Shown piece after piece: positions 200-21,709 of a stretch of DNA of 64,000 nt. A model generated the notes under the pieces. The model saw nothing but the letters and a program-made list of their open reading frames with translations, searched no databases and was not told the DNA's origin. The stretch lies in NCBI GenBank assembly GCA_029366385.1, contig GCA_029366385.1_4540.1; one strand, given 5' to 3'. A program made the position numbers and the translations under genes. This stretch comes from a phage. Position 1 is the first letter of the stretch; every line of letters begins with the position of its first letter.

Positions 200-296
200 C
201 CTTTAATCTTATTGGTAAACCTTCAGGAACCCACCTAGATCGAATCCTAGTGATGCAAACTGAAAAAGACAAGGGTTTGTATAGGACAAAATAACA

Positions 297-330
297 GGCT
301 CTCTACGGTGCTGTAGGAGCCTTATTTCTG
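297..330. terminator. Putative bidirectional rho-independent terminator
   Basis: Stem GGCTC(t)CTAC / GTAGGAGCC with 6-nt loop; followed by TTATTTCT on + strand and by a T-rich run on - strand; lies 50 bp past the stop of the leftward gene 378-920. Confidence 0.4.
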
Positions 331-377: not shown

Positions 378-920
378 TCACAAATATCGTCTTTGCGGTA
401 TTTTGTCTGGGAAAAGTATTTCGATCAGTTTATTATGATATTTGCCTAAAAGATTCTGCCCTTTCCAGGTAGCAGGGTTTAGCACCCCTGGTTCATACAT
501 CCCCATTCCAATTCCGTAAACCTTATCGTAGGGGCTTGCTTCAACAAACGTTTTGTATTGGTAAAGGTGTAAGTCTGCATACAAATCTGGATTCTGTACA
601 TATTTCAAGCATAAACCTCGCATAACAATACGCTCACGGTTCTCTTCCCATACATTGTTATCAAAATCCGACACTGCCCTACCCATACGTTTGTAATAAG
701 CTTGGATCTTCTCATCTTTCCGTATCAAACTATGAGTCAGAATAGCCTGTGCAGTGTTGTGATCATTAAAAAGCAAAGCTTTACGCCACATCATGTATTG
801 TTCGACACAATTAAATGTCTGATTGTAACCTGGTTCGGTTTCTGTAAAGGGTGCAATATACCAATTACTAAACACATCTTTATGTGAAAAGAAGAATACA
901 TATTCATCAGTTATTCGCAT
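378..920 (-). CDS. NADAR-domain protein (YbiA-like N-glycosidase / ADP-ribose-processing fold)
   Basis: 180 aa; motifs FFFSHKDVFSNWY..APF, CVEQYMMWRKALLF, W..NRERIVMRGL..KYVQNP, ASPYDKVYGIG align with E. coli YbiA-type NADAR domain by eye. Confidence 0.75.
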   Translation of the reverse strand: MRITDEYVFFFSHKDVFSNWYIAPFTETEPGYNQTFNCVEQYMMWRKALLFNDHNTAQAILTHSLIRKDEKIQAYYKRMGRAVSDFDNNVWEENRERIVMRGLCLKYVQNPDLYADLHLYQYKTFVEASPYDKVYGIGMGMYEPGVLNPATWKGQNLLGKYHNKLIEILFPDKIPQRRYL

Positions 921-1095
921 TTTTCATACTCTCCAAAATTTCACGTTGCCCTTGCTGATAGGCTTTCATCAGAACTACTTTAAGGTTTGTCTCCAAGAGG
1001 TCTTCATTGTAATTATACCGCTCCACAACATATGTCAATTCATCATAAAGATCAAGAACGGGGTAGAATACAGGGTTATCTGCTAAACGTGCCAT
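907..1095 (-). CDS. Hypothetical protein
   Basis: Track ORF 907-1131; start moved to internal ATG (1095) preceded by AAGGAG at 5 nt spacing; stop overlaps start of 378-920. Confidence 0.45.
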   Translation of the reverse strand: MARLADNPVFYPVLDLYDELTYVVERYNYNEDLLETNLKVVLMKAYQQGQREILESMKNANN

Positions 1096-1108
1096 AGTTT
1101 CTCCTTTG

Positions 1109-1474
1109 TTAATCCATCCACCAGTAGCCATAAACTGCGTCTGCGTCGATGAGTTTGTGTTTGTTGTTCCGCATGTAGTCTAAGATAAGTAGACGTTTAT
1201 TGTATCTGGAGAGATTATGACCCTCTTTTCCGCCATAGTCAAAATATTTTGCAAGATCTTTACACTCAAACAAAATCAGTTCGGGAGTTTCTTCGCACTG
1301 GTCTGTCTGGTACACTTGACGAATGATCATGTATACATCGTCGTCTTCCGCTAAATGCTCTACTGGTCCACATCCAGCAGGAACAAATTCATAGTCCCAT
1401 CGGATCAGATGTTTCTCTACTGCTTCAAAGAAGTCCATTCTTTCGTTGCGCATAATTTGAACGTCAACTAACAT
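1109..1474 (-). CDS. Hypothetical protein
   Basis: 121-aa ORF; start overlaps stop of upstream gene (translational coupling). Confidence 0.5.
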   Translation of the reverse strand: MLVDVQIMRNERMDFFEAVEKHLIRWDYEFVPAGCGPVEHLAEDDDVYMIIRQVYQTDQCEETPELILFECKDLAKYFDYGGKEGHNLSRYNKRLLILDYMRNNKHKLIDADAVYGYWWMD

Positions 1475-2676
1475 GTTTCCTCCTGTAATGTTCCACCATA
1501 AAGTTTATAAATATTTTGTATTGATGCCATGCAAGATAACTCCACTGTCTCTGTGTAGCCATCTGGCATAGAATATTTGCTCACTGCTTCCGTGTGAAGG
1601 ACACGCTTACAACGCTTTTCTGCATCTTTGCATTGCTTCACAGTAGGGAAGTGCCACACTTGGCTCTGTTTCATAGTAAACACATTACGACTATTTTGTT
1701 CTTTGATACGGCGATTACTATTATTAGCAATACCAAACTTCAGTGCACAGATAATATCTTGCTCATCGTAAATATAATTAATGTAGGCTTGTTGTTGATT
1801 CATACCTGCACAACCAGGGCAACCACACCCCTTATTTAACCAATTGTTAGCACTACACACATGTTTCCCATGATCCTTGCAACCATATTCAAAATCCCCA
1901 AGTATAGAAGCTTTCCCGATCCACCCCAACCACACGTACCCTCTACGTTCTACGTCACTTTTTGCTCTAAATGTCATCTCTTCTTCAGAATATTTGTAAC
2001 TGGCAGAACAACGACAAGGGCGCATACCCTGTTTTAATGAACTACCTCTACCGATAAAATATCCCGTTCCTACCCCAGCTTTGGAAAACTCATCTATAGC
2101 ACAGATAGGGCAAAATACACTCCAAAGTATTTCGCTCCTCCCAGCTTTTTCCCCTGTATTAGTGAAGGTAGTGCCTTCGGGAAACACACCCGTACTCATG
2201 AAATCTTGTATGTGCTGATCGTCTGAAAGCTTATTGTGTTTACCTATATCCTCTAAACGACAAACTGGACAACCTTGTTTATTATTCTTAAAGTTGTCTA
2301 TGGTAGATGTGTTAAACTCGTGACCCCTATCACAACGTAAGATTACTCGTGTCTTTTTAGCTTTCAGCCATTCTCCGTAGATACCCAAGAAGCGCCAACC
2401 TCTTTTTAACGCTTCTTCTTCACACTCTTTCTCTTGGTCCTCTCTGCTCTTCGTTCTCTTCTCCCTTTTTGTTAATTCACCACAAGAAGGGCAAGACTTC
2501 CCACTTTTAAAGTTAGATATTTTACAAGTATCCCATACACCGTGCACAGGACATTCTATCAGGAGTTTAGTCTCACACCCTTTCCATTCTTTATGGCCTA
2601 AAATTTTATATCCTTTAGAGAGAGCTATGATCTCGCATTCTGCTTTATATTCTTCCCAACTTTTAGCTTTACTCAT
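1468..2676 (-). CDS. Cysteine-rich protein with three tandem zinc-ribbon-like repeats
   Basis: 402 aa; three copies of a roughly 55-aa module ending C-x2-HG-x5-7-I-x-NF-x3-K-x-GCP-x-C (ECPVHG..NFKSGKSCPSCG; RCDRGHEF..NFKNNKQGCPVC; CKDHGKHV..WLNKGCGCPGC). Confidence 0.6.
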   Translation of the reverse strand: MSKAKSWEEYKAECEIIALSKGYKILGHKEWKGCETKLLIECPVHGVWDTCKISNFKSGKSCPSCGELTKREKRTKSREDQEKECEEEALKRGWRFLGIYGEWLKAKKTRVILRCDRGHEFNTSTIDNFKNNKQGCPVCRLEDIGKHNKLSDDQHIQDFMSTGVFPEGTTFTNTGEKAGRSEILWSVFCPICAIDEFSKAGVGTGYFIGRGSSLKQGMRPCRCSASYKYSEEEMTFRAKSDVERRGYVWLGWIGKASILGDFEYGCKDHGKHVCSANNWLNKGCGCPGCAGMNQQQAYINYIYDEQDIICALKFGIANNSNRRIKEQNSRNVFTMKQSQVWHFPTVKQCKDAEKRCKRVLHTEAVSKYSMPDGYTETVELSCMASIQNIYKLYGGTLQEETC

Positions 2677-5365: not shown

Positions 5366-5712
5366 AGATTATCAAAATAACTAGCGAATAAAAGACGGCC
5401 CTCTAACCGTGCCTTCCTTTGATCTTCAGCATACACGATTTCTGGATTACCACTATCAATAAAAGCATTCTCCATCTTTTCTAAAATATTTAACCACTCT
5501 CTTCTACCTGTCTCCTCTTCTTCATCTGTATACGGCGCACTTCTATTTGGATACAAAACACGCATCAGTTTAGTGGGGATCATGACAAACGTGCTATTGT
5601 TTGCCTTCTCACGGAAGGCTTTAATTCCTGCATAGATTACCTTCCCCAAAGCTGCATCCAAATCCATCAGGTCACTTTCTTCTATTTGAATTTCATCGTG
5701 TACAATTTTCAT
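5356..5712 (-). CDS. Hypothetical protein
   Basis: 118-aa ORF in co-directional overlapping series. Confidence 0.5.
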   Translation of the reverse strand: MKIVHDEIQIEESDLMDLDAALGKVIYAGIKAFREKANNSTFVMIPTKLMRVLYPNRSAPYTDEEEETGRREWLNILEKMENAFIDSGNPEIVYAEDQRKARLEGRLLFASYFDNLWS

Positions 5713-5996
5713 CGTGCCTTCTCCCGATCTGCGTCCAATTTCAACAAGAAGGTTGCATACTCTTCTGAGCCTTGATGCAAGAACATACGATAAGAACTTA
5801 CCAGTTTCTTGGTCGTTGTATAACGTTCCATTTCCCCAACAACACCTCCACCCAGGGTGTAGAGCACAACACCCTCAAACCCAACATGAGTTACTACTTC
5901 AACCAAGTCTGTGTTATCCCAATGGTAGTTAGGTGACACAATAAGATCGCCAACTGCCAGTTTAATGTTTGCTACTTCATTTTGTGAATAATACAT
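5709..5996 (-). CDS. Hypothetical protein
   Basis: 95-aa ORF; ATGA start/stop overlap with downstream gene. Confidence 0.5.
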   Translation of the reverse strand: MYYSQNEVANIKLAVGDLIVSPNYHWDNTDLVEVVTHVGFEGVVLYTLGGGVVGEMERYTTTKKLVSSYRMFLHQGSEEYATFLLKLDADREKAR

Positions 5997-6008: not shown

Positions 6009-6302
6009 TCACATTAAGACACGTTTTGTATCGATGGGTGCATTATCAAACATGTTAAGAACATTGTCAAGCAGTTTTACTAATTCATTTGTAATTTGTT
6101 CTTTTGAACGGGAGGAAGTGAGCACTTTGCTTTCACCAACGATATGCATAACTTTTATAGGAGCATCTAAAATAATGTTGTGCTGACGATCCTCTTCAAA
6201 AGAAGCCAACCATTTCTCGTTGTTACCGTGTAAGGCTACAATGACACCAAAACCGTTAATTGTCTCAGAAATATTCTTAGTTGCTAAAGTAATGTTCATC
6301 AT
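6009..6302 (-). CDS. Hypothetical protein
   Basis: 97-aa ORF; first gene of leftward block, RBS-like AGAGAGG upstream. Confidence 0.5.
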   Translation of the reverse strand: MMNITLATKNISETINGFGVIVALHGNNEKWLASFEEDRQHNIILDAPIKVMHIVGESKVLTSSRSKEQITNELVKLLDNVLNMFDNAPIDTKRVLM

Positions 6303-6994: not shown

Positions 6995-7318
6995 ATGTCA
7001 AACAGTTTGTTTAGCGTGTCAATTGCACCACGTGTCAACATCCGTTGTCAGTTTGTTACTTTACCTGGTGTAACGCATATCACATTAGAATACGATCCTC
7101 GCTCACGAGACAACCCAATCACAGGGAAAATTGATTGTGCTTATGGAGACTTTGTTATGGATCACCAAACCCTCTTATGCTGTGTGCAACGCTTACAGGC
7201 AGGATCTTTATACATCTTTAAGAAAACAGTGTTCCAAGAGATTGCTCAAGCAGTTGAAAGCGGTATGGAGACTCTTAACGTTATGATTGAAGCAGCCAAC
7301 CAGAAGGAGGTTTTATGA
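6995..7318 (+). CDS. Hypothetical protein
   Basis: 107-aa ORF, GAGGAGG RBS. Confidence 0.5.
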   Translation: MSNSLFSVSIAPRVNIRCQFVTLPGVTHITLEYDPRSRDNPITGKIDCAYGDFVMDHQTLLCCVQRLQAGSLYIFKKTVFQEIAQAVESGMETLNVMIEAANQKEVL

Positions 7319-15352: not shown

Positions 15353-17167
15353 ATGAAAGATTTGTACCAAGATGTTTTTTCTTTTTTAGATCGCACTTCA
15401 GAAACATACACTAGAGAGAATGCAAACAAACCTTCCCACCTCGTTAACACGCATAGGGATCTCTTGGCGGGGATTTTAAGCAAACATATGGCAATGACAC
15501 AGATACTGCCAAAAAACTTGTCAGAATGGCATACAGAAGGTTTTGGACATATTCACGATTTGGATTATCTACTCTCTCCTCTTACAAACTGTTGTCTTGT
15601 TAATTATCAAGATATGTTAGAGAATGGTTTTAAGATCGGAGCCGCACAAATAGAAAAACCAAAATCTATTGGGGTAGCTACTACAGTGCTAACTCAAATC
15701 ATTCAAGCTGTTGCCTCCAGTCAGTATGGAGGTCAGACGTGTGCGCACATTGATAAAGGTCTTAGTCCTTATGTTGAAGCTAGTTTCCTTAAAAACATGG
15801 AGATAACTAAACGTCGCTACGGTTGTTATGCAAGGAAAGAAGCCCTAGAAATGACCGAACAAGATGTATATGATGCTATGCAAACTCTCTTGTATCAGGT
15901 TAATACTTTAATGAGTGTAAATGGACAATCTCCTTTTATTACAATTAGTATGGGTCTGGATACCTCTGTTTTTGGCAGAATGATCACAGCTAACTATCTT
16001 AAAGTGCATAGTAATGGTCTAGGCAAAGATCATGTAACACCTGTATTTCCTAAAGTTATTTTCTTTTTACAAGAAGGTGTTAACATGAAACCTAGTGATC
16101 CTAATTATGACCTTAAGCAACAAGCTTTGGCATGTTGTGCTGATCGCATTTATCCAGATTTTATTTCTGTTCCTTTGAACAAAGAAGTTACGGGATCAGC
16201 AGATGGTACTGTTACGAGTATGGGTTGTCGTTCCTTTTTGTCGTACTATGCCACCGAACAAGGAGAAAAATATGATGGACGATTCAACCTTGGAGTAGTT
16301 TCTATCAACTTGCCTCTGATTGCTGCGGAAGCGAGAAGTAAAGGAGAATCTTTCACCGACCTCCTTAATAAACATATGGAGATAGCCTACGATGCTCACA
16401 TGTTACGTGTAAACCGTATTAAACATACCAAAGCATCTGAAAACCCTATTCTTTTCATGGAAGGGGCTTTAGCGCGTTTAAATGCCAACGATGAAATTGG
16501 TGTTTTGTTTGAAGATGGTTATGCTTCTATTAGTATTGGTTATGTAGGTCTTGCTGAAGCTTTGGAAATCCTTTATCCAGAAGAAAAAGATAAAAAGGAG
16601 CTAGGTAAAAACATTCTGCAACATATGAAAGATGTGTGTGCTGTGTTTAAAGAGCGATCTAAGCTGGCATTTAGTCTCTATGGAACTCCAGCAGAATCTT
16701 TGTGCTATAAGTTTGCAACAGCTTTAAATGAAAAATATCCAGGTCTGGTAGAAAGAGATTATCTTACTAACTCTTTTCATCAACCTGTATGGTTGGTAAC
16801 AAATCCTTTTGAAAAATGGGATTATGAAGCAGGTTTTGCACAGATTAGTAATGGTGGTAACATAAGTTATGTCGAAACACCAAACTTAAAGAATAACTTA
16901 GAAGCTTTGGAGACTTTAGTAGACTACGCTTATGAACATATTCACTATTTTGGTATTAATCAGCCCGTGGATCAATGCTTTAAGTGTGGTTTTCATGGAG
17001 AATTTAAGGCAACGGCTAAAGGGTTTGAGTGCCCTGATTGTGGCAACCATGAAGAAGAAACTATTTCTGTAGTTAGGCGTGTATCAGGGTATCTTTCTGC
17101 TCCTAATTCACGGCCTTATAACAAAGGTAAAATGCAGGAAGTTTTGCAAAGGGAGAAACATCTTTGA
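15353..17167 (+). CDS. nrdD: Anaerobic ribonucleoside-triphosphate reductase (class III)
   Basis: 604 aa; C-terminal Zn ribbon CFKCG..CPDCG and glycyl-radical motif RRVSGYL. Confidence 0.9.
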   Translation: MKDLYQDVFSFLDRTSETYTRENANKPSHLVNTHRDLLAGILSKHMAMTQILPKNLSEWHTEGFGHIHDLDYLLSPLTNCCLVNYQDMLENGFKIGAAQIEKPKSIGVATTVLTQIIQAVASSQYGGQTCAHIDKGLSPYVEASFLKNMEITKRRYGCYARKEALEMTEQDVYDAMQTLLYQVNTLMSVNGQSPFITISMGLDTSVFGRMITANYLKVHSNGLGKDHVTPVFPKVIFFLQEGVNMKPSDPNYDLKQQALACCADRIYPDFISVPLNKEVTGSADGTVTSMGCRSFLSYYATEQGEKYDGRFNLGVVSINLPLIAAEARSKGESFTDLLNKHMEIAYDAHMLRVNRIKHTKASENPILFMEGALARLNANDEIGVLFEDGYASISIGYVGLAEALEILYPEEKDKKELGKNILQHMKDVCAVFKERSKLAFSLYGTPAESLCYKFATALNEKYPGLVERDYLTNSFHQPVWLVTNPFEKWDYEAGFAQISNGGNISYVETPNLKNNLEALETLVDYAYEHIHYFGINQPVDQCFKCGFHGEFKATAKGFECPDCGNHEEETISVVRRVSGYLSAPNSRPYNKGKMQEVLQREKHL

Positions 17168-17634
17168 ATTTTGCAGGATATGAACCTGTAGATCTTATTA
17201 ATGGTGAGGGAGTTAGGTGCTCCCTCTGGGTTAGTGGTTGTAGCCACGGTTGTCGTGGCTGTTTTAACCAAAAAGCCTGGTCTTATTCTTATGGGAAACC
17301 GTTTACTGACGAAAATGTAGAGCAAGTTTTAAAAGATTTGTCAAGACCATTTGTAAAAGGTTTAACAGTTTTAGGAGGAGAACCATTAGATCCGCAGAAT
17401 ATTCACAATGTTAAAAGCCTTATAGAAAAGGTTAGAGACGTTTATGGGTCAAGCAAAGATATAATGGTGTATACAGGATATACTTTTGAGGAAGTGCCTT
17501 TGTATATTAAAAATCTTGTTGACATTATTGTAGACGGAAAGTACGAAATAAACAATCCAACTACAAAACCTTTCAGAGGGTCAGATAATCAAAGATTATG
17601 GACCAAAACGGCAAGTGGTTGGCAATCAGATTAA
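17164..17634 (+). CDS. nrdG: Anaerobic RNR activating protein (radical SAM)
   Basis: 156 aa, TTG start overlapping nrdD stop; CSHGCRGC (Cx3Cx2C) cluster. Confidence 0.85.
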   Translation: MNFAGYEPVDLINGEGVRCSLWVSGCSHGCRGCFNQKAWSYSYGKPFTDENVEQVLKDLSRPFVKGLTVLGGEPLDPQNIHNVKSLIEKVRDVYGSSKDIMVYTGYTFEEVPLYIKNLVDIIVDGKYEINNPTTKPFRGSDNQRLWTKTASGWQSD

Positions 17635-17854: not shown

Positions 17855-18460
17855 ATGCAACATAGTGTAGTAGTCAACATGCCGAACAGCGGAGATAAAT
17901 CTTTTGGTGTCCCTGCTAAAAAAGTGTGGAAAGCCCATTTTCATCTTACTTTATCTAACGTTAGTTCTGAAGAGTTGATGAAAGCAGCTAAGATTATTGG
18001 TGCCAAATGCACAACAATTGATTTACATCGGGATACAAAGTCTCAACGTGATCGTATGTTAACAAAGTATCAAAGCGATCTCGACACTACTTTAATGTTG
18101 CAATGTGTAGAAAAACTTGAGAATGCAGGTTTCAATGTTGTTCGTTACAAACTGGAACGAATGTTTAAACATGTTGCCTGTGTTCTTTTCATGGATCTAA
18201 GTAAAGAAAATTATGGAGAAGTTCACATTAAGACTTCAGCAAGTGATCCCGAAGTAGAAACAAACTTCTTCCGTATTTCTTCTAATGCTGAAGAAATTGA
18301 TTACCGATTTTATAATGCTCGCTTATATTCCGCAGAAGATAAGTTGCGTTTCAATGAAGCGTATGATATGCTCTTGAACAGTGGGATACAGATAAAAGGC
18401 TACCACATAGAACAAGTTGTGGTAGACAGTAACTTAAATCTTGATGCGTGGTGGGCCTAA
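17855..18460 (+). CDS. Hypothetical protein
   Basis: 201-aa ORF with RBS; contains HFHLTL but no second H-x-T/S motif. Confidence 0.5.
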   Translation: MQHSVVVNMPNSGDKSFGVPAKKVWKAHFHLTLSNVSSEELMKAAKIIGAKCTTIDLHRDTKSQRDRMLTKYQSDLDTTLMLQCVEKLENAGFNVVRYKLERMFKHVACVLFMDLSKENYGEVHIKTSASDPEVETNFFRISSNAEEIDYRFYNARLYSAEDKLRFNEAYDMLLNSGIQIKGYHIEQVVVDSNLNLDAWWA

Positions 18461-18461
18461 T

Positions 18462-19118
18462 ATGACAATAAAACATATCTCTTTTGATGTATGGAACACT
18501 CTTATTTCTGCCAATCAAAACTATGCAGATGCACGTACGCACACTATTGCGACATATGGTAGAATGTCTGAACGTGCCGCAAAAGAAGCATATAAAGATG
18601 CCAAAGAAATTATGGATAATGCTGCACTAAATGGGTGTGCAGAAGGTGTAGCATATGCATGGAATATGTTGGGAAGAAAAATAGGTTTAACCCCTGTAGA
18701 ATCTGCACAAATGCGTTTTGAGTGTGAACAATGGTTTCTTAAATTTCCTCCACATATTGCTTTAGATTTGCCAGTTTGTTTGCTATACTTGTCTGGTAAA
18801 TATGATCTTAGTATTAAAAGCAATACTAATTTTATATCTGGAGATATTTTGCGTCGTGCTTGCATGTTTGATAGTTGGAATTGTTTTGAATTTATGCATT
18901 TTTCAGACGAACATCTGTTGTGTAAACCAGATCCTAGATTCTTTGTTAGGACCGCCACATATTCAAGCATTCCTTTGAAGGCTGAAGAGATCTTACATGT
19001 TGGGGACAGCGAAGAATTTGATGGTAAATGTGTTGACATAGGGATTAACTTCTGTCATATTAAGAACCCTAACGATTTACTAGAGAAACTTAAAAGAGGA
19101 GAAATTGTAAATGCGTAA
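18462..19118 (+). CDS. HAD-superfamily-like hydrolase
   Basis: Track ORF 18441-19118 taken from ATG 18462; motif I-like ISFDVWNTL and motif IV-like LHVGDSEEFD. Confidence 0.45.
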   Translation: MTIKHISFDVWNTLISANQNYADARTHTIATYGRMSERAAKEAYKDAKEIMDNAALNGCAEGVAYAWNMLGRKIGLTPVESAQMRFECEQWFLKFPPHIALDLPVCLLYLSGKYDLSIKSNTNFISGDILRRACMFDSWNCFEFMHFSDEHLLCKPDPRFFVRTATYSSIPLKAEEILHVGDSEEFDGKCVDIGINFCHIKNPNDLLEKLKRGEIVNA

Positions 19119-19938
19119 TCAAACTCAAATTTTTGCAAATAAATTTGATGCCCTGGAAACTGCTACTTTTGATATCAAAGATTATTCAAAATTGAAATTT
19201 GGTAGTAACCAAGCTGCGCGTCGTATGGGTAAAGAATTGGCACTTCAGTTTTTTGCTCAAGTAGCAATGAAACATATTGGGGAACAATTTGTTATCATTC
19301 CTTCTCCTTATAACCATGTGCATAATGCTGCAACAATGATGACAGATCATTTTATTAATTACTTTAATATGTTACAAGCACAATATGATCAAGGTCGTTC
19401 AGCAGAACTGGATATTATTCATCGTAAAGTTAGCTATATCAACGATTATGGTTTCTTGGATAAAGCTAGTCGTAAGAAACTTATTGATGGGGATACATTC
19501 TACTGCAACAAAGAATTCTGGGGTGATAAGAAGCTTGTGTTCATTGATGATGTAAATATCACTGGAACTCATGAAGACAAACTGATTGAGATTCTTGATG
19601 AAAATCAAGTTAAAAATGATGTTTACTTCTTGTATTTTGCAAAATATGAAGGTAATCAAGCAGATACCGAAGCTAAGCTGAATTTTAACTATATTAATAC
19701 ACCAGAAGCGTTTGTTAAAATGATTAATGAAGAATGTGATGCACAGTGTCTTGTTCGTCCTATTAAGTATCTTATGGGCCAAAATCATGAAGACTTCAAA
19801 ATCATTCTTAGCCAATTGCCACACTACTATGTGGAACAACTTTTCTTCGGCTGTTTAGCTGAAGGCTACAATCGAATTGCAAAGTATGCTGAAAACTTTG
19901 AGTTCTTGGATCGTTACACAAAACAACATATTCTGTAA
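19111..19938 (+). CDS. Phosphoribosyltransferase (type I PRTase fold)
   Basis: 275 aa; PRPP-binding signature KKLVFIDDVNITGTHED. Confidence 0.55.
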   Translation: MRNQTQIFANKFDALETATFDIKDYSKLKFGSNQAARRMGKELALQFFAQVAMKHIGEQFVIIPSPYNHVHNAATMMTDHFINYFNMLQAQYDQGRSAELDIIHRKVSYINDYGFLDKASRKKLIDGDTFYCNKEFWGDKKLVFIDDVNITGTHEDKLIEILDENQVKNDVYFLYFAKYEGNQADTEAKLNFNYINTPEAFVKMINEECDAQCLVRPIKYLMGQNHEDFKIILSQLPHYYVEQLFFGCLAEGYNRIAKYAENFEFLDRYTKQHIL

Positions 19939-19947
19939 GGAGGAAAA

Positions 19948-20421
19948 ATGTTGAAGGTTGTTACTGGGAATCTGATCGATGCAGCGAAGAATGGGGAAGT
20001 GAACGTTATTGCTCATTGTTGCAATTGTATGTGTAATATGGGGGCAGGAATTGCTCCGCAAATTAAACGAGCATTCCCTTATGCATATGCGGCAGATTTA
20101 GACACAATGGCTGGTGATCAAAGTAAGTTAGGTTCTTTTAGTTTAGGGGTGCCAGACGAACAATCAGACCCTTTGGTATATAATCTATACGGGCAATACC
20201 GTTACGGATATAATGCTAAAGGTCGTCAGTTGGACTATGATGCCCTATACGATGCACTAATAGCTATGGCTAACGATTTGCTTCTCCGTGACCAAAAATG
20301 TAAGATCGGTTTACCTATGATTGGAGCGGGACATGCCGGAGGTAATTGGGCTATCATCCAAGTGATGATTGAAGAAACTTTAGTAAAAACAGGTCACGAT
20401 GTGACTATTTATAAACTTTAA
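19948..20421 (+). CDS. Macro-domain protein, TARG1/OARD1-like
   Basis: 157 aa; VIAHCCNCMCNMGAGIAPQIKRAFP aligns with human TARG1 [24 protein letters not shown], and IGLPMIGAG..VTIYKL with MPRIGCG..ITVYTL (recalled sequence). Confidence 0.75.
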   Translation: MLKVVTGNLIDAAKNGEVNVIAHCCNCMCNMGAGIAPQIKRAFPYAYAADLDTMAGDQSKLGSFSLGVPDEQSDPLVYNLYGQYRYGYNAKGRQLDYDALYDALIAMANDLLLRDQKCKIGLPMIGAGHAGGNWAIIQVMIEETLVKTGHDVTIYKL

Positions 20422-20433
20422 GAGGAGATTAGT

Positions 20434-20655
20434 ATGGGTGTTTTTGCAGGTATTGTTGCAGTGGTAAGCTTTTTTGTTATTGCTTTTATGCTTAGTTTGA
20501 TTCCAGCTTGGTTACTGTTGCTGGCTTACAACTATGTTGCTGAAGTTATGGGTCATGCAGATATCACTGTCCCAGTAACCTTCTGGACCGTGGTTTGTGT
20601 TTCGTTTATTCTGGCGGTATTACGAGGAATCTTTTCCTCTCATTCAACAAAATAA
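20434..20655 (+). CDS. Small membrane protein
   Basis: 73 aa, two hydrophobic segments. Confidence 0.45.
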   Translation: MGVFAGIVAVVSFFVIAFMLSLIPAWLLLLAYNYVAEVMGHADITVPVTFWTVVCVSFILAVLRGIFSSHSTK

Positions 20656-20658
20656 GTG

Positions 20659-20686
20659 TTGACATAGTTCTTAAAAAGAGTAAGAT
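20659..20686 (+). promoter_or_regulatory. Putative promoter TTGACA-N16-TAAGAT upstream of terC
   Basis: Same -35/-10 hexamers and spacing as the 6359 promoter. Confidence 0.45.
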
Positions 20687-20698
20687 ATATCACATGAA

Positions 20699-20717
20699 GC
20701 GGGGAATAGTTCCCCGC
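20699..20717 (+). promoter_or_regulatory. Leader stem-loop upstream of terC
   Basis: Perfect 8-bp stem GCGGGGAA / TTCCCCGC with loop TAG, between the -10 and the RBS GAGAGGAG. Confidence 0.35.
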
Positions 20718-20734
20718 AAAGAGAGGAGAAAAGA

Positions 20735-21709
20735 ATGCAACTCGGTTTCCCAATTATTGATGTAGTTGTTTTAGTTGGTATTTTAGCATTGTCTATTGGT
20801 ATCGATTTCTTTGGTCATAAAGAGAATAAAGAAATTGGAATTAAATCTGCTTTGCTTTGGTCTGTTTTTTGGATTGCTTTAGCTTTAGGATATTACGCAT
20901 TCATTTGGGTAGAACATGGTAAAGAGTTTGCCGCGCTTTTCCTAAGTGGCTATGTGTTGGAAAAGAGTCTTTCTGTAGATAACCTAATGGTGTTCATGGC
21001 AATTTTTGCAAGCTTTGGAATTAAGAGCACACATCTCCAACATAAGATTTTACTTTGGGGGATTGCAGGAGCCATTGTCTTCCGAGGTATTTTTGTTGCA
21101 GCAGGAACAGCTTTATTTAACCTGCATTGGTCGGTCCAAGTGCTGTTCGGTCTGATTGTAGCTTGGTCTGCCGTTGCTATTATCAAAGGTGGTGACGAAG
21201 AAGAGGATATCGATTACTCTAAACATTGGGCTGTTCGTTTAGTAGGTAAAATCCTGCCTGTGCACAATGCACTGGATGGTGAAAAGTTCATTACCATTAA
21301 GAATGGTATTAAATATGCAACTCCTGCTCTTCTTTGTGTGTTTGTTATTGAGCTTACAGATATTGTCTTCTCTTTTGATTCAGTTCCGGCTGTGATCGGT
21401 GTGACACAAGAACCTCTGCTAGTTTATTCTGCAATGCTGATGGCTGTTCTTGGTTTACGTGCACTTTTCTTTGTGTTAAGTGTAGCTGTGAAATATTTGG
21501 TTCACTTAGAGAAAGCTGTTGCTGTGGTTCTGGTGTTTGTTGGTGCTAAACTTATGTATCATCCGTTCGGTGAAACACTTCATGCCAAGTGGTCATTCCT
21601 CCCGCATGATATTTCCCCTAACGTAAGTCTGATGATTGTTCTAGGCACATTAGCTCTTGGTGTTATTGCAAGCTTTATCTTCCCTGAAAAAGAAGAAGCT
21701 ACTGTTTAA
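20735..21709 (+). CDS. terC: TerC-family integral membrane protein
   Basis: 324 aa, multiple TM helices; motifs EKSLSVDNLMVF and TDIVFSFDSVPAV. Confidence 0.8.
   Translation: MQLGFPIIDVVVLVGILALSIGIDFFGHKENKEIGIKSALLWSVFWIALALGYYAFIWVEHGKEFAALFLSGYVLEKSLSVDNLMVFMAIFASFGIKSTHLQHKILLWGIAGAIVFRGIFVAAGTALFNLHWSVQVLFGLIVAWSAVAIIKGGDEEEDIDYSKHWAVRLVGKILPVHNALDGEKFITIKNGIKYATPALLCVFVIELTDIVFSFDSVPAVIGVTQEPLLVYSAMLMAVLGLRALFFVLSVAVKYLVHLEKAVAVVLVFVGAKLMYHPFGETLHAKWSFLPHDISPNVSLMIVLGTLALGVIASFIFPEKEEATV

Follow-up and report, generated by a model that had tools for sequence, protein, structure and literature searches.

Whether a NADAR-domain protein encoded by a phage shields the DNA of that phage from ADP-ribosylating host immunity, or serves instead in the disposal of reactive metabolites, is the question raised by a gene near the start of a 64,000-nucleotide stretch of phage DNA (the window). 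The first 4.3 kb of the window share 96-98% identity with several Escherichia phages, among them anhysbys, ESCO5 and ukendt, and the source is, as judged from its sequence, a phAPEC8-like E. coli phage of the genus Phapecoctavirus (Stephanstirmvirinae). A literature search for Phapecoctavirus together with NADAR returned author-name matches only and no paper linking the two.

The NADAR gene and the leftward block

An open reading frame (ORF) on the minus strand, with its ATG at 918-920 and its stop at 378-380 in the ORF list, lies exactly where the original prediction had placed a NADAR protein. It is, as was also proposed, the final gene of a leftward block that extends from ~6821 down to 378, while rightward genes begin at 6995. 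The features of this region are:

286-322, minus strand: terminator-like hairpin and U-tract identified by RNA folding, 56 nt beyond the NADAR stop
378-920, minus strand: NADAR-domain CDS, 180 aa, Pfam NADAR 124 bits, predicted AdfN-type guanine-ADP-ribose glycohydrolase
929-934, minus strand: Shine-Dalgarno-like GGAGAG read from the sequence, with an 8-nt spacer to the NADAR ATG
1468-2676, minus strand: CapR/T5orf172-like endonuclease, 402 aa, between the AAA ATPase and NADAR genes
5709-5996, minus strand: small gene with a Phage_tudor domain (PF24144), in the same leftward block
6009-6302, minus strand: small DUF7325 gene, in the same leftward block

A Pfam search, which had been suggested as a check of the domain assignment, was positive. 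PF08719 (NADAR, DUF1768) matched the 180-aa protein at 124.2 bits, compared with a gathering cut-off of 35.1 bits (E 7.8e-36), over residues 11-161 and model positions 3-154 of 163, a match far beyond chance. The protein also matched PHROG 1017, which is listed as being of 'unknown function' (E 5e-52).

The GGAGAG element sits within the 3' end of a small upstream ORF (907-1131, minus strand) that shares 14 nt with the start of the NADAR gene, and this overlap, together with the placement of the ribosome binding site, suggests that the two genes are translationally coupled. In ESCO5 and Schickermooser, the ORF upstream of the NADAR gene is annotated as a 59-aa CDS that overlaps by 4 nt and whose 3' end is in another frame; the ESCO5 counterpart of 907-1131 is found at NC_047776.2 3917-4096. 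This mismatch points to either an indel or a difference in start or stop calls between genomes that are otherwise 98% identical. Downstream of the NADAR gene, a hairpin at 296-322 (GGCUCCUAC...GUAGAGAGCC, with one bulge) is followed by UGUUAUUUUGU at 286-295. The minus strand of 270-380 folds with -26.8 kcal/mol (z -3.96), and none of 200 shuffled sequences was equally stable. A consensus terminator scan downstream of the gene gave no match, having missed the hairpin at 296-322 because of its bulge. The structure at 286-322 is terminator-like and would close the leftward transcription unit. A T-loop-like string near 230-260 was considered as a tRNA and rejected, since scanning the window for tRNAs gave no hits.

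Among the neighbors of the NADAR gene, the product of 1468-2676 contains three CapR homology repeats (PF21817), has a C-terminus with weak resemblance to T5orf172/MUG113, and matches PHROG 681 ('endonuclease'). Its counterpart is a 325-aa hypothetical protein in Bas61, and its length also differs in Schickermooser and WPEC6 (1461 nt). In many Phapecoctavirus records, the match to the 4.3-kb region is split in two, with 79-89% coverage, and the gene resembles a variable insert of the mobile or homing-endonuclease type. The Phage_tudor and DUF7325 domains farther upstream are recently defined phage domains.

The NADAR gene is present in all 71 of the phage records that share the region, at protein identities of at least 80%, and the protein of Phapecoctavirus 536P1 is 100% identical. 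Homologs were found in 719 phage records, many of them from large myoviruses of Staphylococcus (233), Listeria, Enterococcus and Bacillus. Their names in these records are mostly 'hypothetical protein', while the BASEL phages carry 'putative YbiA-like N-glycosidase' and several records use 'GTP cyclohydrolase II' (RefSeq ESCO5, NC_047776.2 3378-3920; AV123; KMB37; and Staphylococcus and Enterococcus phages). Other relatives are called 'DNA methyltransferase' (phage Eryne) or 'swarming motility protein' (Lactobacillus phage Lpa804). Database naming of this family is thus inconsistent and misleading; 'GTP cyclohydrolase II' probably stems from the RibA-NADAR fusions behind TIGR02464 ('ribofla_fusion'). 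A labeling problem of a different kind concerns the records MG065650, MG065639, MG065645, MG065656 and MG065689, deposited as 'Campylobacter phage' B15, A150, A145, C3 and A110a (host C. jejuni), which are 98-99% identical to E. coli Phapecoctavirus or Justusliebigvirus genomes. These five records are probably mislabeled or derived from contaminating coliphages.

Fold, active site and selection

An AlphaFold2 model of the NADAR protein, built from a 50-sequence alignment, had a mean pLDDT of 95.7 and a pTM of 0.89. Foldseek comparison of this model with the PDB gave only two significant matches, the NADAR protein of Phytophthora nicotianae with bound ADP-ribose (8BAU; TM 0.78, E 2.8e-9) and E. 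coli YbiA (2B3W; TM 0.68/0.72). The G. lovleyi DarG1 structure was absent among the significant Foldseek matches. A phmmer search of the PDB recovered 8BAU alone, so that YbiA surfaced only through the fold search. The 8BAU protein, which like the stand-alone bacterial NADARs is a cellular protein, is ~28% identical to the phage protein and shares with it an extended YbiA-like fold.

Schuller et al. (2023, PMC11543638) described the ligand contacts of 8BAU, in which the distal ribose is flanked by E43 and E125, the phosphates are touched by K50, R79, W89, R93 and W133, Y84 stacks on the adenine and K75 is close to the site. They also mutated the E. coli C7 enzyme and found that the equivalents of the E43, K50 and E125 positions are needed. 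Residues were mapped from the phmmer alignment to 8BAU, with a chain numbering offset of +2, as follows (8BAU, then phage protein):

Catalytic and ribose-flanking positions: E43, E40; K50, K47; E125, E127
Phosphate-contacting positions: R79, R81; W89, W91; R93, R95; W133, Y135
Adenine-stacking position: Y84, F86
Other positions: K75, K77; D130, D132

In the same alignment, D86 of 8BAU corresponds to N88, and the ADP-ribose contacts are therefore kept except for Y84F, D86N and W133Y. E40, K47 and E127, the last of which lies within a VEASPYD motif, align with the catalytic reference residues of PnNADAR (E43/K50/E125) and of the C7 enzyme (E88/K95). Conservation of the catalytic residues had been named as a further check of the original prediction, and these residues are in place. 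E40, K47, G80, W91, E127 and D132 are invariant in the 50-sequence alignment, down to ~40% identity, and the catalytic and ligand-binding residues are unchanged in five Phapecoctavirus orthologs. Pairwise dN/dS values among these orthologs were 0.03-0.19, and the gene is under strong purifying selection. Considering the model and the sequence together, the gene is intact, selected and catalytically equipped.

Amino acid variation among the Phapecoctavirus orthologs is confined almost entirely to residues 52-72 and 85-90 and takes two allelic forms, NDHNTAQAILTHSLIRKDEKIQ...SDFDNNV and KDHAIAAAILDHSTIRDNERKQ...SGFNNNM. The second variable stretch flanks the adenine-stacking F86, and the variable residues form the helices and loop beside the adenine- and phosphate-binding site. 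This allele pattern suggests recombination or tuning of specificity.

Tested relatives, proposed function and alternatives

A tblastn search of phage genomes led to phi92-like phages, Escherichia phage EmilieFrey among them, which encode a group of proteins with ~59% identity. GenBank locus tags equate PaulScherrer with Bas60, EmilieFrey with Bas61 and JohannJBalmer with Bas62, all of which belong to Justusliebigvirus, a sister genus within Stephanstirmvirinae. The NADAR proteins of these three phages are 98.9-100% identical to one another (98.9% for Bas61 vs the tested Bas60 protein). The Bas60 protein was named AdfN^Bas60 by Johannesman et al. (2025, PMC11825919), who found that it neutralizes DarT1 in uninfected E. 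coli without other phage factors and that RB69, T5 and Bas25 were able to plaque on a DarTG1 host when it was provided, whereas DarTG2 was not countered. DarT1/DarTG1 neutralization has been shown for the NADARs of Bas60, Bas32 and T4 only (PMC11825919).

The NADAR protein of the window is 59% identical to bas60_0111 (QXV83846.1; 101/172, E 1e-69), and identity, E value and synteny all mark it as an ortholog of AdfN^Bas60; the orthology comparison covered AdfN^Bas60 and AdfN^T4. In both phages, which belong to the same subfamily, the gene is found downstream of an AAA ATPase gene and is the last of its block, and both proteins are stand-alone domains that share the VEASPYD motif around the catalytic glutamate and have neither an N-terminal extension nor an adjacent toxin. 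They differ at 41% of positions, the Bas60 type has a beta-hairpin insert (residues 27-40) that is 6 residues longer, and a different gene lies between its ATPase and NADAR genes, where the window has the CapR/T5orf172-like endonuclease and two small ORFs.

The relationship with the T4 protein is of another kind. AdfN^T4 (gp30.3) is likewise a phage orphan NADAR that counters DarTG1 and is accompanied by a Tk.4-type macrodomain in the same genome. However, it is only 18% identical in alignment, with no detectable pairwise similarity (BLASTP E 4.3) and thus no orthology, it has a histidine at the position of the catalytic glutamate found here, and its full activity depends on another T-even factor (PMC11825919). 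The NADARs of T4 and of Phapecoctavirus are, by this comparison, independent acquisitions. DarG1 of E. coli C7 or G. lovleyi is a member of the same superfamily with the same predicted hydrolysis of guanine-ADP-ribose, but it adjoins DarT1 and possesses an N-terminal extension and a key acidic aspartate, D171 (PMC11543638), whereas the phage protein is of the glutamate type, begins directly with the core domain (residue 1-11) and lacks both a DarT1 operon partner and such an extension. A Pfam scan of its neighbors detected no ART toxin; in accordance with the orphan character of AdfN proteins, it is phage-encoded and surrounded by small ORFs without known function, the CapR/T5orf172-like endonuclease and the AAA ATPase.

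The nearest non-phage relatives, at 41-48% identity, either stand alone or are found in phage-like gene surroundings. Two of them, P0104 and P0055, were examined as the closest bacterial homologs, and neither has an ART neighbor: P0104 is located in a phage-like neighborhood with a Gp3-like domain protein and ORFs of no known function, and P0055 stands alone in a myxobacterial genome. Therefore, there is no evidence of a toxin-antitoxin origin for this NADAR clade. The ART-free bacterial relatives also fit the published tree, in which the Bas60 type groups with non-DarT-associated bacterial NADARs and outside the YbiA-like group (PMC11825919).

The original prediction regarded the protein as part of a counter-defense against ADP-ribosylating immunity, and this view is supported by the tested, syntenic and 59%-identical AdfN^Bas60 and by the presence of the catalytic residues. 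As the Phapecoctavirus ortholog of AdfN^Bas60, the protein is probably an orphan-antitoxin-type NADAR hydrolase that would undo DarT1-type ADP-ribosylation of guanine in phage DNA, with both the chemistry and the anti-DarTG1 effect attributed to it by analogy with tested relatives. In the proposed mechanism, a DarT1-type toxin of the host would ADP-ribosylate the N2 amino groups of guanines in single-stranded phage DNA, leading to a block of replication. The NADAR enzyme would then bind the ADP-ribose moiety of the modified guanine, with K47, R81, W91 and R95 contacting the phosphates, F86 stacking on the adenine and E40 and E127 flanking the distal ribose, as predicted by homology to 8BAU. 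Hydrolysis of the bond between base and ribose would release ADP-ribose and restore guanine, allowing replication to proceed.

A very different role was suggested by the name under which related proteins are classified, that of a housekeeping N-glycosidase of the YbiA/COG3236 type, which would destroy reactive riboflavin intermediates during infection as a form of metabolite damage control, with no part in immunity. The phage protein scores 113.1 bits on NCBIfam TIGR02464, 'riboflavin biosynthesis intermediates N-glycosidase' (cut-off 73.7), a model that YbiA also passes, the two share their fold and the E/K/E triad, including the YbiA-subfamily glutamate E127, and public records offer 'GTP cyclohydrolase II' and 'YbiA-like N-glycosidase' as names. 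Alignment with such N-glycosidases had been put forward as an observation that would overturn the counter-defense reading, but it proved non-discriminating, being true also of the AdfN^Bas60-type protein from Bas61, with 109.8 bits on the same model. TIGR02464 membership was accordingly rejected as an argument for a riboflavin role. YbiA itself hydrolyzes guanine-ADP-ribose in vitro using the same catalytic residues (PMC11125620), and, given this activity and the score of the Bas61 protein, the two 'families' are inseparable by sequence model or by residues. Apart from the TIGR02464 threshold, the marks of YbiA/COG3236 membership (closeness to K-12 YbiA, a compact core, and rib linkage or fusion among the scanned neighbors) were absent. 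Identity to E. coli YbiA is ~29% in a partial alignment of 96 aa only, and YbiA has an N-terminal extension, reads VEHTEND where the phage and Bas61 proteins read VEASPYD, and lacks the extended segment of the phage protein (137-151), including the 11 residues 137-147. No riboflavin (rib) genes were found among the scanned neighbors, and the published tree, which does not place the Bas60 type in the YbiA-like group (PMC11825919), also speaks against this role, which is considered very improbable.

What tempers confidence in the anti-DarT1 function is the behavior of NADARs in vivo. E. coli YbiA and T4 gp30.3 both hydrolyze guanine-ADP-ribose in vitro but fail to rescue uninfected cells from DarT1 (Cihlova et al., 2024, PMC11125620), which sets YbiA apart from the Bas60 type, and the C7 NADAR does not rescue cells from YarT (PMC11125620). 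In vivo specificity is thus narrow despite conserved activity in vitro, and this is the main reason why the anti-DarT1 reading is held as probable and no more firmly. Given the 41% divergence and the differences in the adenine loop (85-90), the enzyme could prefer a toxin or substrate other than that of AdfN^Bas60. The enzyme might apply the same chemistry mainly to the product of a toxin other than DarT1, with DarTG1 neutralization being incidental or absent; RNA guanine-ADP-ribose, cytidine-ADP-ribose and a YarT/pierisin-like ART of an undescribed defense system are conceivable targets. NADARs also reverse guanosine-ADP-ribose on RNA (PMC11833690), and some, including those of the YbiA type, reverse cytidine-ADP-ribose (PMC12945103). 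The strong in vivo specificity of toxin-antitoxin pairs, the abundance of homologs in the myoviruses noted above, and a 121-bit match to PADLOC PDC-M42C are compatible with such a target. On the other hand, the closest tested protein neutralizes DarT1/DarTG1 (PMC11825919), and guanine-ADP-ribose has been a substrate of every NADAR tested so far (PMC11125620, PMC11833690), making a different main target unlikely. In a bolder version, prompted by the two allelic forms, the protein would not simply be a DarT1 eraser, and its alleles would be arms-race specificity cassettes tuned to different ADP-ribosylating toxins or substrates, which could include cytidine-ADP-ribose, guanine-ADP-ribose on RNA or some enterobacterial ART defense yet to be discovered, e.g., PADLOC PDC-M42; this proposal is regarded as distinctly doubtful. 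It is extremely improbable that the protein acts by binding alone, sequestering a toxin or an ADP-ribose-containing signal without hydrolysis. Another phage NADAR, as cited by Johannesman et al., reportedly has no need for enzymatic activity, but the invariance of all catalytic residues under strong purifying selection and the ability of the tested relative to work without binding partners (PMC11825919) argue for catalysis.

NADAR proteins are also found in database models of defense systems. PDC-M42C, matched here with E 1e-35, is the NADAR protein of an uncharacterized candidate anti-phage system, and NCBIfam NF053876, 'DS32_2 NADAR family anti-phage protein', gave a weak match. NADARs thus appear on both the defense and the counter-defense sides.

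A second, candidate ADP-ribose-directed protein and what the pair means

The original prediction pointed to a TARG1-like macro domain elsewhere in the genome, in a region with the following features:

15353-17634: NrdD/NrdG, followed by the run below
17855-21709, plus strand: co-directional run around the macrodomain gene, including an ORF of no known function (PHROG 22504)
18441-19118: HAD-like hydrolase
19111-19938: ComF-like PRTase_3 (141 bits)
19948-20421, plus strand: macrodomain CDS, 157 aa, homolog of T4 Tk.4/AdfM and S. coelicolor SCO6735
After the macrodomain gene: 73-aa membrane protein
20735-21709: TerC

A macrodomain is indeed encoded at 19948-20421, as revealed by a Pfam Macro match just above threshold (23.0 bits, cut-off 22) and by matches to PDB entries for SCO6735 (5E3B, E 9e-13), the DarG macrodomain (5M31, E 1e-7) and TARG1/OARD1 (E 2e-6), as well as to DarG models of PADLOC (E 7e-11) and NCBIfam (E 1.5e-9). 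The assignment to the TARG1 catalytic type did not hold. The catalytic lysine of TARG1 and DarG in the 'TKK' motif, presumably TARG1 K84 and TaqDarG K80, is absent, with Q and Y at the aligned positions ('NLYGQYRY'), and it is likewise missing from SCO6735 ('NMIGQHGM') and Tk.4 ('NLYTQFQP'). The protein is 34% identical to T4 Tk.4 over 144 aa (BLASTP, E 7e-22), with which it shares PHROG 335, and by these comparisons it resembles the SCO6735/Tk.4 type more closely than it does TARG1 proper. In T4, tk.4 is the single gene required on DarTG2 hosts and has been renamed adfM (2025 preprint, 10.1101/2025.11.20.689424), and SCO6735 was reported to hydrolyze thymidine-linked ADP-ribose (PMC11833690). 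The macrodomain protein is, by analogy with these relatives, a candidate thymidine-ADP-ribose glycohydrolase directed against DarTG2, and if it acts on thymidine-ADP-ribose as predicted for a Tk.4/AdfM-like protein, it would together with the NADAR enzyme provide cover against both DarTG subtypes. The proposal that two ADP-ribose-removing folds in one phage indicate counter-defense is borne out to the extent that this macrodomain is homologous to the anti-DarTG2 protein of T4. Because T4 carries both AdfN and AdfM, two erasers in one phage have a direct precedent, and both Justusliebigvirus and Klebsiella phage KB57-like genomes carry the pair as well. The macrodomain gene lies 19 kb from the NADAR gene and is functionally related to it but not linked.

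The surroundings of the macrodomain gene leave room for an additional function. The combination of PRTase, HAD and TerC genes recalls the Ter-associated 'nucleoside-like metabolite' neighborhoods that Anantharaman, Iyer and Aravind are said to have described in 2012. Because the macrodomain gene is embedded in this HAD/PRTase/TerC run, a role in nucleotide-metabolite reactions is possible, and the protein may have a metabolic role besides, or instead of, its anti-DarTG2 role. In some Vibrio phages, a macrodomain homolog adjoins a ribose-phosphate pyrophosphokinase gene. Identification of the neighborhood with the NARP3 NAD+ pathway was rejected, as NARP3 consists of PnuC and NadR.

The concept of anti-DarT NADARs, their mechanism and a 59%-identical ortholog have already been published for the sister genus, and the practical gain from the present analysis lies in re-annotation and host-range prediction for therapy-relevant phages rather than in a new question. 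Misleading names, such as 'GTP cyclohydrolase II', 'DNA methyltransferase' and 'hypothetical protein', are corrected. The AdfN family is extended from Justusliebigvirus to its sister genus Phapecoctavirus, which provides a second lineage besides T4 in which a NADAR and a Tk.4-type macrodomain eraser co-occur. Phage-therapy work directed at pathogenic E. coli makes use of Phapecoctaviruses, including 536_P1, ESCO5 and phAPEC8, and the presence of a likely anti-DarTG1 enzyme together with a likely anti-DarTG2 macrodomain helps to predict their host range on strains that carry DarTG systems.
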